Source: Patescibacteria group bacterium (GTDB taxonomy: Bacteria > Patescibacteriota > Minisyncoccia > Phycocordibacterales > PALSA-1337). Taken from it: a stretch of DNA of 45,672 nucleotides. Below, piece by piece: positions 12,133 through 15,132 of the stretch. The notes under the pieces are model-generated. The model was not told where the DNA came from. It searched no databases and saw only the letters and a program-made list of their open reading frames with translations. A program made the translations under genes and the position numbers. Position 1 is the stretch's first letter; each line of letters opens with the position of its first letter. The DNA lies in the NCBI GenBank assembly GCA_028865615.1, contig JAGWJT010000002.1, forward strand, positions 1 to 45,672, written 5' to 3'.

Positions 12133-15132
12133 ATGAATAGACAAAGCCGACCGCAGAAGATCGCGTCCTACGATCCGTCCAAGATAGAGAAGAAATGGCA
12201 AAAGAAGTGGGCTTCATCGAAGGTATACAAGTCGCAAGAGCGCAAAGTGCAAGGCGCAAACGGCAGTAAATATTACGTCCTAGACATGTTCCCGTATCCT
12301 TCGGGTGAAGGGCTCCATGTCGGACATCCGAAGGGCTACATAGCCACAGATATCGTGTCTCGCATGCATAGGATGCAAGGCAAGAATGTATTGCACCCCA
12401 TGGGCTTCGACGCCTTCGGCCTGCCTGCGGAGAATTATGCCATCAAGATGAAGATGGATCCGGCTGTGGCCATGAAGAAGAACGTGGCAAGGTTCAAGAA
12501 ACAATTGGAAATCATCGGCCTGGACTACGACTGGTCGCGAGAGGTCAATACGACGGATCCGGCGTATTACAAATGGACGCAGTGGGCATTCTTGCAGATG
12601 TACAAGAAGGGCTTGGCCTATGAATCGAACGAGCCGGTCAACTGGTGCCCGAAAGACAAGACCGTACTGGCCAACGAAGACGTGGAGAACGGCCTCTGTG
12701 AGCGTTGCGGCACGCCGGTAGAGAAGAAGCCTATGCGCCAGTGGGTCTTGAAGATAACGGATTATGCCGACAGATTGCTGGCCGATCTGGATGCGACTGA
12801 TGGATCAAGCAAGCCGCTCCTCGACTGGCCGGAATCCATCAAAGAAGCCCAGAGGAACTGGATAGGCAGGAGCGAGGGCGCGGAGATAGATTTCAAGATT
12901 AAAGATAGCGACAAGGTTATTAAAGTCTTCACCACGCGCCCAGATACGCTCTTCGGCGTGACTTATCTGGTATTGGCGCCAGAGCATCCTTGGGTCAAAG
13001 AGCTATTGCCTCGCGTCTCTAATAAAGCCGAAGTTGAAGTTTATATTTCTAAGACCCAGCATGAGACCGAGATCGAGCGCACGGATGCCAAGAGAGATAA
13101 GACCGGCGTGGAATTGAAGGGCGTCAAAGCAGTCAATCCAGCTAATGGCGAAGAAGTGCCTGTGTGGATAGCCGATTATGTATTGGCCGATTACGGCACC
13201 GGCGCCGTCATGGCCGTGCCGGCGCACGATGAGCGCGATTGGGAATTCGCAAAGAAGTTCGGGTTGCCTATTAGGCATGTTGTCGTCCCTGAACGCAAAG
13301 CTACAACGACAGATATTGCATTCCACGACGGAGAGTCTGTCATAAAGCGCAATGTCATAAGAGCAGTAGTTAAGCATTGGTCGGAAGATAAATATCTTGT
13401 CCTCAACTGGAATGAGCACGGCTGGAAGACTTTCATATCTGGCGGCATCGAGGATGGAGAGAGCTTTGTAGAAGCAGCCGTTCGTGAAATACGGGAAGAG
13501 ACGGGATACAAGAACATCAGTTTCATAGGAGAGATAGGCGGTCCGATCAGGGCGCTATTCTATGCCCCTCACAAGGATCAGAATCGAATAGATATACAGC
13601 AGGGTTTGCTATTCAAATTGAAAGACGGCGAACAGATCGAGGTGTCAGAAGACGAGCACAAAAAGCACACAGCGGAGTGGTTGCCTTTTTCCAAGGCAAG
13701 CGAGATATTCAATGCGACTCTTGTAGATCAAGTCTTGCTTGCTCGCATAGATAATCATCAGATGGGTGCATATACTGATTCCGGGGTACTCATTCATTCA
13801 GGAGAATTCGACGATAAAGCCTCTAGCATTGCAATGAAGGACATAACTGCCTTCGCCGGCGGGCGGTGGGTGACGCGATACAAACTCCGCGACTGGGTGT
13901 TCTCGAGGCAGAGATACTGGGGCGAGCCGATACCGCTCGTGCACTGCGAGAAGTGCGGCGTAGTGCCTGTGCCGGAGAAGGAATTGCCGGTAAAATTGCC
14001 GAAGGTGAATTCATATGAGCCCACGGGGACGGGGGAATCGCCTTTGGCGGCCATATCCAAATGGGTCAATGTCAAATGCCCCAAGTGCGGCGGTAAAGGC
14101 AGGCGCGAGACGAACACTATGCCGCAATGGGCCGGTTCGTGCTGGTATTATCTCCGATATGAAGATCCGAAGAATAAGAAAGCCTTGGTCGATCCAAAGA
14201 AAGAAAAATATTGGTCGCCCGTAGATCTATATGTTGGCGGAGCGGAGCATGCCACTAGGCATCTCATATACGCCCGCTTCTGGCATAAATTCTTGAAAGA
14301 CATAGGCGTCGTGTCGACTATCGAGCCATTCACAAAGCTCCAATCAGTGGGTTTGATAATGGGCGAGGACGGCAGGAAGATGTCCAAGCGCTTCGGCAAT
14401 GTGGTCAATCCGGATGACATCGTGGCAAGGTTCGGTGCAGACACCCTGCGCGTGTACGAGATGTTCATGGGGCCTTTCGACCAGAGCATCGCTTGGAGTA
14501 CCGATAGCATAGTCGGGGCGCGGAGATTCATCGAGAGAGTATGGAAACTGGTTTATAAAGCCGTATCGGAATATGGTTCCGAGGGAACTCGCGCAGGCCG
14601 CGAAGGCGGCCGAGCGCAGGCGCTGGACCAGCAGGGCCAGACAGCCGGTTCCCGAGAAGCCATTTCCGATACGGCTTCAAGAACAATAAACAAAGCCATC
14701 AAGAAAGTCACAGACGACATCGACGGCCTACGATTTAACACTGCTATAAGCGCCCTCATGATAGCCGCAAACGAATTGGAAAAGTTGGAGGCTGTGGATA
14801 GGGCGTCATTTGAAACTTACCTGAAACTGCTCGCTCCATTTGCGCCTCACGTCGCCGAAGAATTGTGGGCCGCTCTGGGCAACAAAAAGTCCATCCACAT
14901 ATCGCCATGGCCGCAATACGATCCGACCCTGGCCGTAGAAGAAGAACGGCGCATAATCATCCAGATAAACGGTAAGGTTCGCGGCTCATTCATGGCCAAG
15001 AATGGCGCTACCGATGCGGAACTGGGATCAGCGGCCAAACAGGCGCCAGAGGCTCGAAAATGGCTGGACGGCAAGGATATCAAGAAGATGATCGTGGTTC
15101 CAGGCAGACTAGTCAATTTCGTTATCGGCTAA
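12133..15132 (+). CDS. leuS: leucine--tRNA ligase carrying an inserted Nudix domain (alternative start 12121)
   Basis: HIGH region [12 protein letters not shown], CP1 editing domain [12 protein letters not shown], KMSKR, and the C-terminal anticodon-binding region. There are about 145 extra residues after CP1 containing [23 protein letters not shown]. Confidence 0.95.
   Translation: [999 protein letters not shown]
14561..14674 (+). repeat. 114-nt GC-rich imperfect palindrome inside leuS
   Basis: Terminal arms CCGTATCGGAA / TTCCGATACGG are perfect over 11 bp and extend imperfectly to about 30 bp. Internal hairpin GGCCGC-GAA-GCGGCC. The length is 38 codons. Confidence 0.7.

Follow-up and report, generated by a model that had tools for sequence, protein, structure and literature searches.

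What is a complete Nudix hydrolase doing in the middle of a leucyl-tRNA synthetase (LeuRS)? The question is raised by contig JAGWJT010000002.1 of a Patescibacteria group bacterium (assembly GCA_028865615.1), of which we analysed positions 1 to 45,672, forward strand; this whole stretch of 45,672 nucleotides is referred to below as the window. A first-pass annotation, made from the sequence without database searches, had noticed a Nudix domain inside the product of leuS. The gene is complete and lies at the conserved leuS locus of a Patescibacteria genome (of Parcubacteria/Paceibacteria type, one window having been read). We describe how its Nudix module is nested in the editing domain of the enzyme, how widely this arrangement occurs and how it may have arisen, and we weigh what the module might be there for. 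The features of the gene are as follows.

12121-15132, plus strand: leuS, a bacterial-type leucyl-tRNA synthetase with a nested Nudix module, open reading frame (ORF) of 1003 amino acids (aa) (TIGR00396, Pfam and AlphaFold2, AF2)
12316-12330, plus strand: HIGH signature HVGHP of the class I synthetic site, aa 66-70 (motif search; invariant in a 66-sequence alignment)
12853-13287, plus strand: N-terminal part of the CP1 editing domain, aa 245-389 (Pfam tRNA-synt_1_2)
12931-12948, plus strand: Thr-rich motif TTRPDT of the CP1 editing domain, aa 271-276 (motif search)
13195-13239, plus strand: GTG...HD.RD editing segment with its conserved Asp, aa 359-373 (motif search)
13288-13767, plus strand: Nudix module PERKATT...NHQMG, aa 390-549 (Pfam NUDIX, a hidden Markov model (HMM) of the module family, AF2, and comparison with the insert-free LeuRS P0095 and with Thermus LeuRS)
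13441-13509, plus strand: Nudix box, aa 441-463 (G441, E447, R455, E456, E459, E460 and G462)
13768-13890 (end approximate), plus strand: C-terminal part of the CP1 editing domain, resuming after the module (Thermus LeuRS alignment, P0095 profile)
14377-14391, plus strand: KMSKS signature KMSKR, aa 753-757 (motif search; invariant or near-invariant in the 66-sequence alignment)
14683-15006, plus strand: anticodon-binding domain, aa 855-962 (Pfam Anticodon_1, 83 bits)

The host enzyme has the landmarks of a LeuRS. As first described, leuS is one uninterrupted frame: the ORF list gives 1003 codons with no internal stop, and the HIGH, KMSKS and editing motifs are all in place. The public gene call for this ORF (P0008) is 999 residues long, four fewer, and the start may thus be Met5 (nucleotide 12133). 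The protein scores 1049.5 bits against the NCBIfam equivalog leuS_bact (TIGR00396), well over its cut-off of 548.4, which makes it a member of the bacterial-type LeuRS of class Ia; the match is broken into two stretches by the insert. Pfam recognises tRNA-synt_1, tRNA-synt_1_2, Anticodon_1 and NUDIX (PF00293) in the 1003-residue protein. A full-length AF2 model computed from the 66-sequence alignment has a mean predicted confidence (pLDDT) of 85.6 and matches E. coli LeuRS (5on2) in Foldseek with an E-value of 1.8e-78 and a template-modelling score normalised to the target, TM(target), of 0.84; over the LeuRS body, comparison with the E. coli and Thermus enzymes gives TM(target) values of 0.80-0.84. 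Judging from their motifs, both active sites are intact: the module has disturbed neither the synthetic one (HIGH, KMSKS) nor that for editing (TTRPDT, GTG...HD.RD). Residues 820-843 (nucleotides 14578-14649) form a Gly/Arg/Gln/Ala-rich stretch of low complexity, predicted to be disordered (pLDDT below 50), that separates the catalytic core from the anticodon-binding domain; some relatives have 30-40 extra residues there.

Where exactly does the module sit? It is about 160 residues long and stands in place of an 8-residue loop, AGGDINKT, of P0095, a syntenic orthologue without the insert. The alignment with Thermus thermophilus LeuRS ends at Thermus residue 362 and picks up again at 'AYEEPGIMVNSGPFD', Thermus residue 376, so that 13 Thermus residues (363-375) face the roughly 160 of the module; an ordinary LeuRS carries a short loop here and not a homologous segment. 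The tRNA-synt_1_2 profile (219.9 bits) aligns aa 245-398 of the window protein to its positions 1-150 of 185 and halts there, whereas in P0095 it runs contiguously from position 1 to 181. Because the editing-domain profile is interrupted in one protein and continuous in the other, we place the module within a surface loop of CP1 and not beyond the end of that domain; on this alignment the GVLxxSGEF segment downstream still belongs to the editing domain. The first-pass annotation had quoted the landmarks on either side of the extra residues correctly (aa 365-388 and 555-565), but had put the insertion after the end of CP1, which has to be revised. Its interval for the insert, 13288-13779, translates to the residues it quoted and is slightly too long, since the final AYTD (13768-13779) is native LeuRS sequence and the module ends at 13767.

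That the insert is a whole Nudix fold, placed in frame, is borne out by profiles and by structure prediction alike. Against a gathering score of 21.1, PF00293 matches the whole protein with 49.1 bits (E 7e-13, aa 432-530) and the insert alone with 53.6 bits (E 3e-14), and the module-family HMM reaches 204.8 bits across aa 387-557. In the full-length AF2 model, aa 391-560 have pLDDT values of 87-96, linkers included. Modelled alone, the insert has a pLDDT of 95.1 and forms an alpha/beta/alpha sandwich, in which the Nudix box lies on a helix predicted for residues 60-72 of the insert (aa 449-461 of the LeuRS). This isolated model superposes on solved Nudix enzymes with TM-scores of 0.79-0.81. 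The superpositions first proposed as a check thus come out on both sides, the body matching solved LeuRS and the insert being predicted to fold by itself as an autonomous Nudix domain.

The catalytic residues of this domain are conserved to a degree that its overall sequence is not. The box, at 13441-13509, matches every specified position of GX5EX7REUXEEXGU except the last U, which is Tyr and not Ile, Leu or Val; the earlier description of it as letter-perfect therefore holds for its position and for all residues but this one, and Tyr is here the family consensus (276 of 341 copies). Among 208 copies at this same site of LeuRS, G1 is kept in 205, E7 in 193, R15 in 197, E16 in 207, E19 in 205, E20 in all 208 and G22 in 205. 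Across the 341 copies of the family, the box residues are 84-100% conserved, and six further positions (R410, K485, N488, R489, E512 and W520 in window numbering) are 81-98% conserved, while the identity among modules at this site averages 31%. Because catalytic and metal-binding residues are so strongly kept on a fast-evolving background, conservation indicates that the module is probably an active enzyme, a putative Mg2+-dependent pyrophosphohydrolase. The impression that all catalytic glutamates were present and that the domain looked active rather than decayed is supported by the 193-208 of 208 same-site copies that retain the catalytic residues.

How far this arrangement extends depends on how it is searched for: word-indexed searches with the insert only badly undercount the fusions, and full-length and exhaustive profile searches were needed. 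A search with the insert and short flanks returned partial LeuRS from other assemblies with a Nudix domain at the same place, of which P0001 crosses both junctions; it also returned Nudix proteins that stand alone, with lengths of 160-189 aa and an identity of 42-47% to the insert. In a full-length search, nearly all of the 120 best LeuRS matches (53-72% BLAST identity) contain PF00293, and those sources of these matches that are named are metagenome-assembled genomes (MAGs) of Patescibacteria, Parcubacteria, Paceibacterota or Taylorbacteria. The exhaustive profile search, in which LeuRS flank plus Nudix was the query against 1.84 billion representatives of 50%-identity clusters, found 214 representatives at E <= 1e-30, with flank and Nudix matched contiguously in most of the best 150. 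A scan with one genome per species found at least 140 relatives, of which 80 loci were kept; in about 70 of these 80 the match falls in an ORF of LeuRS size that has LeuRS motifs together with one, two or three Nudix domains. The record titles of the loci cover many lineages of Patescibacteria, among them Taylor-, Kaiser-, Nomura-, Moran-, Zambryski-, Giovannoni-, Falkow-, Adler- and Berkelbacteria. Taken together, these searches show the module to be lineage-wide in LeuRS of the Patescibacteria type. The nested Nudix domain reported from this window is thus real, but it is no event of a single genome: of the 120 closest LeuRS, 92 have a module at the window's own site.

The module is also seen under other labels. 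Several gut MAGs are labelled Bacilli, Bacillota or Clostridia; their LeuRS are about 44-45% identical to that of the window and have the module in the same loop. In six loci (L066, L070, L071, L074, L076 and L079), from MAGs labelled Bacilli, Bacillales, Bacillota or Roseburia, the LeuRS is about 940-960 aa long, with a core 44-45% identical to that of the window, and carries the same Nudix family in the same CP1 loop (110-118 bits). These copies reflect either a wider phyletic spread, horizontal transfer or mislabelled bins.

Could the fusion nevertheless be an artefact, either a chimeric assembly or a decayed insertion in a pseudogene? One property of the insert would fit such an origin: its G+C content at third codon positions (GC3) is 0.488, against 0.644 in the rest of leuS, which places it in the lowest 3.6% of the coding windows of the contig. 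However, 71 other loci show a systematic GC3 deficit of the module (mean difference -0.057, 83% negative), the ORF is in frame and uninterrupted, AF2 predicts the fold with confidence, and the same architecture recurs in hundreds of independent assemblies from several sources. With many of these crossing both junctions, the assembly fault that the first-pass annotation had wished to exclude by means of junction reads is very unlikely, and we give an artefact of any kind almost no credence. Since the GC3 deficit is systematic, a recent horizontal acquisition also finds no support as a specific event, even though the value in the window is extreme. An intein or another self-splicing or homing insertion was rejected as well, as Pfam sees NUDIX alone in the insert, the entire insert is predicted to be a Nudix fold, and a search for junction repeats or mobile-element scars gave only matches of chance size (10-19 nucleotides). 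No Rfam elements were found close to leuS.

A LeuRS of this group can do without the module. The contig of P0095 has the gene order of the window, namely G6PD, YchF, leuS, a sigma-region-4 protein, YceG, MnmA, an ATP-cone protein, UDG and AlaRS. Given this shared order, the two leuS genes are orthologous and occupy the same locus, so that what distinguishes them is whether the module is there or not. P0101 is a further close syntenic orthologue that, like P0095, has no module at all.

Neither is the window's loop the only one to be occupied. We aligned the 120 closest LeuRS to P0095 and found five discrete sites of insertion, all in surface loops and given here in P0095 numbering.

Site 1, about residue 221, ahead of the linker into CP1: one or two Nudix modules, in 72 of 120 proteins
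Site 2, residues 251-257, in the first CP1 hairpin: an alpha/beta hydrolase of about 180 aa, in 30 of 120
Site 3 (that of the window), residues 380-388: Nudix, in 92 of 120
Site 4, residue 450, after the CxxC knuckle: an alpha/beta hydrolase, in 5 of 120
Site 5, residue 494, after the second CxxC: a HAD domain, in 13 of 120

In a few proteins it is site 2, or sites 4/5, that this Nudix family occupies. The combinations amount to 19 architectures among the 120 proteins, and the window enzyme, loaded at site 3 only, is the simplest loaded form, as are 26 of the 120. At the other end are LeuRS relatives of 1300-1560 aa (P0009, P0011, P0012, P0024, P0080 and others, as well as loci L001 and L030, the former with an open frame of 1735 codons). 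Such relatives combine up to three Nudix domains with a YdeN/RBBP9-like serine hydrolase and a HAD phosphatase, and some have as many as five modules. The alpha/beta module retains the GHSLG nucleophile elbow and resembles YdeN/RBBP9 serine hydrolases (1uxo, E 1e-10); RBBP9 itself may hydrolyse amino-acid esters such as valacyclovir. The HAD module retains FDFDGVLGDT, with the DxDG motif, and has no sequence relative in the PDB at E <= 0.01.

An HMM built from the 92 same-site modules gives 140-205 bits on other copies at that site, on the Nudix copies at site 1 and on the free-standing proteins P0002, P0004 and P0005. On these scores the site-3, site-1 and free-standing proteins are one specific Nudix family, and the alignments show that this one family has made its way into four or more separate loops of LeuRS. 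All long proteins that we checked among the best 150 family matches are LeuRS. The sole non-LeuRS fusion seen is P0276, a protein of 311 aa in which a family member is joined to a PF22327 domain. The neighbours of free-standing members are neither conserved nor informative (OTCase/epimerase, DUF817/kinase, inositol phosphatase/DUF2914). The copies at site 1 (for example in P0015, P0068 and P0090) have a more variable box, E7 being Gln in 28 of 72 and R15 replaced in 31 of 72, with E16, E19 and E20 kept; those with an altered box may be partly degenerate or regulatory.

The history of the modules does not follow that of the enzymes that carry them. Among the 92 site-3 proteins the LeuRS cores are 58-99% identical (mean 73%); for the modules the mean is 31%, and clustering them at 45% identity yields at least 17 groups. 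Two proteins whose modules fall in one cluster have cores about as similar (74.3% identity) as two whose modules do not (72.8%). The nearest core to that of the window, P0037, is 80% identical, and its module just 21%. Correlating the identity matrices gives r = 0.18-0.61 for core regions with one another and r = 0.01-0.12 for the module with any core region. Free-standing members are about as near to the window module as most nested copies are, and a crude neighbour-joining tree of the cores requires many gains or losses for each module. A recent intragenic duplication between sites 1 and 3 was considered and rejected, since two copies in the same protein share about 30-34% identity and resemble each other no more than copies from separate proteins do. 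Because module identity is uncoupled from core identity, these comparisons suggest that modules have been repeatedly captured or replaced, rather than inserted once in an ancestor and inherited vertically.

What kind of Nudix enzyme is it? In a single-sequence search of the PDB the best two matches are Ap4A hydrolases (1f3y and 3i7u). The family profile ranks 2azw, 1f3y, Chlamydia CT771, 3fcm (an uncharacterised Nudix hydrolase), the decapping effector AvrM14 and the Dcp2-type 5lon, with the Aquifex Ap4A hydrolase two places lower. The structural ranking is likewise headed by 2azw, followed by the Aquifex Ap4A hydrolase 3i7u (TM 0.80, root-mean-square deviation 2.6); MutT1, the C. elegans Ap4A hydrolase, the Thermus Ap6A hydrolase Ndx1, human Ap4A hydrolase and RppH are among the structural matches further down. 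ApnA hydrolases thus rank high (1f3y, 3i7u, CT771, 1vc8, 1kt9 and 4ijx), yet 2azw, to which no function is assigned, comes first. A Tyr or another aromatic residue 16-18 positions after the box reportedly marks ApnA hydrolases. The window module has Phe at +17 and Tyr at +18, and nearly all of the 208 same-site copies have Phe or Tyr at both positions. In sequence and predicted structure the module looks like the small group of ApnA hydrolases and RNA pyrophosphohydrolases and is a member of no curated family; the searches weakly favour an Ap4A/RppH-like clade. The targets that the first-pass annotation had suggested (aminoacyl-adenylates, Ap4A-type by-products and nucleotide caps) are still speculative. 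It falls short of the RppH equivalog (NCBIfam PRK00714, 33.6 bits against a cut-off of 118), and an RppH-like action is possible nonetheless.

The reading that we prefer, to which we assign a probability of roughly 0.5, is that the module is an extra, autonomous hydrolase nested on LeuRS, that it clears by-products of the Ap4A/ApnA type in cis and that it behaves as an exchangeable cassette. LeuRS would then carry a third hydrolytic active site, that of a putative Mg2+-dependent nucleoside-diphosphate-X pyrophosphohydrolase, held beside the part of the enzyme that handles the acceptor end of the tRNA. Ap4A-type by-products of adenylate chemistry are the known chemical link between aminoacyl-tRNA synthetases (aaRSs) and Nudix enzymes. 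The substrates would most likely be Ap4A/ApnA dinucleoside or nucleoside polyphosphates formed as by-products of adenylation, which is the weakest step of the proposal; the module would remove them locally, and selection would favour the physical attachment of a Nudix cassette to LeuRS. It is because the history of the module is decoupled from that of the core that we think of an exchangeable cassette selected for its association with LeuRS.

Several points weigh against this proposal, most of them against its substrate. The assignment to ApnA draws on weak and generic Nudix similarity. The first structural and profile match is 2azw, an entry with no assigned function, and RppH, Dcp2, MutT1 and ADP-ribose pyrophosphatases lie within about 100-fold of the best E-value; the module reaches the threshold of no NCBIfam equivalog, RppH being the best. 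LeuRS is not known to be a strong producer of Ap4A, and a diffusible product offers no obvious motive for a covalent fusion. The losses of E7 and R15 at site 1 mean that not every copy need be catalytic. Finally, the counts of gain and loss and the decoupling derive from a crude neighbour-joining tree, from identity matrices and from a set of sequences chosen by similarity to the query.

The module might instead be a passenger, that is, an active house-cleaning hydrolase that rides in a permissive surface loop of an essential protein, made constitutively by a bacterium with a reduced genome, and has no coupling to leucylation, editing or tRNA. Nudix and HAD proteins are classic house-cleaning families. 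The module corresponds to an entire protein of the free-standing type, whose free relatives are ordinary genes in unrelated contexts; unrelated hydrolases (YdeN/RBBP9-like, HAD) occupy other LeuRS loops of relatives; and the syntenic orthologues P0095 and P0101 show that LeuRS function can dispense with the module. What makes us regard the passenger as unlikely, despite these points, is the host: the same Nudix family sits in at least four loops of one enzyme, in up to three copies, and the finding that the long family matches checked are LeuRS is hard to explain without selection for proximity or targeted insertion. Another possibility is a role at the ends of tRNA. The Nudix domain might remove a 5' pyrophosphate or nucleotide cap from tRNALeu, or deblock a pyrophosphorylated 3'-CCA end, and the domain that holds the insertion is the one to which the CCA end binds. 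The best matches in sequence and structure include, beside the ApnA hydrolases, RppH, Dcp2 and two decapping effectors, AvrM14 and WY-Nudix, and the conserved basic residues could bind phosphates or RNA. The serine esterase-type and HAD phosphatase-type modules in neighbouring loops, with intact catalytic motifs, might make up with it a set for acceptor-end repair. Yet the RppH equivalog thresholds are not reached, and removal of a 3'-pyrophosphate from tRNA is attributed to SAH-type hydrolases and not to Nudix enzymes. A literature search linking Nudix, toxSAS and tRNA found nothing. We hold this role to be rather less probable still than that of a passenger.

A broader version of the same thought takes the LeuRS of Patescibacteria as a scaffold for conflict-like, exchangeable hydrolase cassettes set round the CP1 hinge and the zinc knuckles, serving to repair or deblock acceptor ends or to destroy inhibitors. 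Its targets could include pyrophosphorylated or phosphorylated CCA ends, N-acylated aminoacyl esters, capped or triphosphorylated 5' ends and inhibitors that mimic leucyl-adenylate. The 19 architectures and the uncoupled history of the modules are what makes their turnover appear conflict-like. If the idea is true, an aaRS would have immunity or repair as a built-in function; we consider it a long shot, slightly behind the narrower role at tRNA ends. More doubtful than any of these is a module that does no catalysis and uses the Nudix fold for structure, tRNA binding, ligand sensing or protein interaction. The family evidently tolerates degeneration of the box, as the site-1 copies with altered E7 and R15 attest, and the linkers, too, have a high pLDDT, which suggests that the module is packed rigidly against CP1. 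However, the window copy keeps its catalytic residues, as do 93-100% of the 208 same-site copies at about 31% identity, which is the signature of selection on catalysis, and we regard a purely non-catalytic role as improbable.

Two free-standing Nudix genes lie 8-9 kb downstream; the first-pass annotation had noted them, at 8 kb.

21907-22455: free-standing Nudix gene (Pfam NUDIX)
22522-23076: free-standing Nudix gene (Pfam NUDIX)

They belong to a different Nudix family from the module, its HMM giving 16 bits on one and no match on the other, and they are thereby ruled out as donors of the insert. Both are part of a block of five small genes (21396-23995; GC 0.40-0.50 against 0.51 for the window) that also includes a weakly nucleoside 2-deoxyribosyltransferase-like gene (23528-23995). 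Because the syntenic contig L089 has no such block between its ATP-cone and UDG genes, the five genes look like an island that was inserted and that serves the handling of nucleotides. The surroundings of leuS differ from L089 in other ways. An ORF of 150 aa with a GTG start encodes a TrmB/MarR-like helix-turn-helix protein between ychF and leuS (11633-12085), where the gap in L089 is 13 nucleotides, so that this gene is an extra one in the window. An M3-family peptidase gene (25136-26992) between UDG and alaS is not found at that position in L089. The protein encoded at 20514-21356 joins an ATP-cone to an Mrr-type restriction-endonuclease domain, an unusual pairing, and for its L089 counterpart the ATP-cone match alone was recorded. 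Upstream of the G6PD gene, six tRNA genes form a cluster on both strands (7311-8542).

The aaRSs are among the most conserved and best-studied enzymes, and the CP1 domain makes bacterial LeuRS a target of drugs. Nested in CP1 and conserved over a large radiation of uncultured bacteria, a hydrolase with an intact catalytic site would add a third active site to this enzyme and would tie an aaRS to Nudix chemistry by a direct physical link that can be tested, be it the chemistry of Ap4A-type alarmones, RNA ends or adenylate analogues. Repeated nesting of domains in an essential enzyme is also seldom displayed in nature as clearly as in this family, for which syntenic orthologues with and without each module provide matched natural controls. 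A warning for annotation follows from how these proteins are named in the databases, inconsistently, as leucine--tRNA ligase or 'class I tRNA ligase family protein', and in two cases after the inserted module alone ('alpha/beta fold hydrolase', 'MutT').

How does this enzyme compare with known systems? It has the class Ia order of elements seen in the canonical bacterial LeuRS of E. coli, T. thermophilus and N. gonorrhoeae (5on2, 2bte and 7nu3), with which it shares the Rossmann HIGH/KMSKS core, the Thr-rich and GTG...HD.RD motifs of CP1, the zinc knuckles and the anticodon-binding and C-terminal domains. Where the window protein has a 160-residue Nudix domain, however, the canonical enzymes have a CP1 loop of 8-13 residues, and none of the solved LeuRS among the structural matches, all of them of 876 residues or fewer, has a nested Nudix domain. 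With free ApnA hydrolases and RNA pyrophosphohydrolases (3i7u aq_158, 1f3y from lupin, 1vc8 Ndx1, 4ijx NUDT2 and 4s2x RppH) the module has in common the box, the sandwich, a length of about 130-160 residues and the aromatic residues 17-18 positions after the box, at an identity of 16-25%. Unlike them, it has conserved residues of its own and an N-terminal 'P-[YF]-F-x-D...R' extension, and it is nested in another enzyme.

Precedents for joining an aaRS or a nucleotide enzyme to a catalytic domain exist in IleRS-GNAT (NF040702), NadM-Nudix (NF003787) and M. smegmatis MutT1 (Nudix plus a second domain); the first two are weak NCBIfam matches of the window protein, and MutT1 is a structural match. 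All three are known as terminal fusions of a single domain. A literature search combining Nudix with LeuRS or aaRS, with the candidate phyla radiation, Patescibacteria or Parcubacteria, and with editing domain or fusion found no description of a Nudix domain inside any aaRS, in agreement with what had first been supposed. The LeuRS module differs from the terminal fusions in lying within a loop inside the editing domain, and in that relatives of its host carry up to three copies of it and two other hydrolase superfamilies, over five sites. LeuRS and Nudix are each of a well-known kind; what is new is the nesting of one in the other, together with its multiplicity and its behaviour as a cassette.

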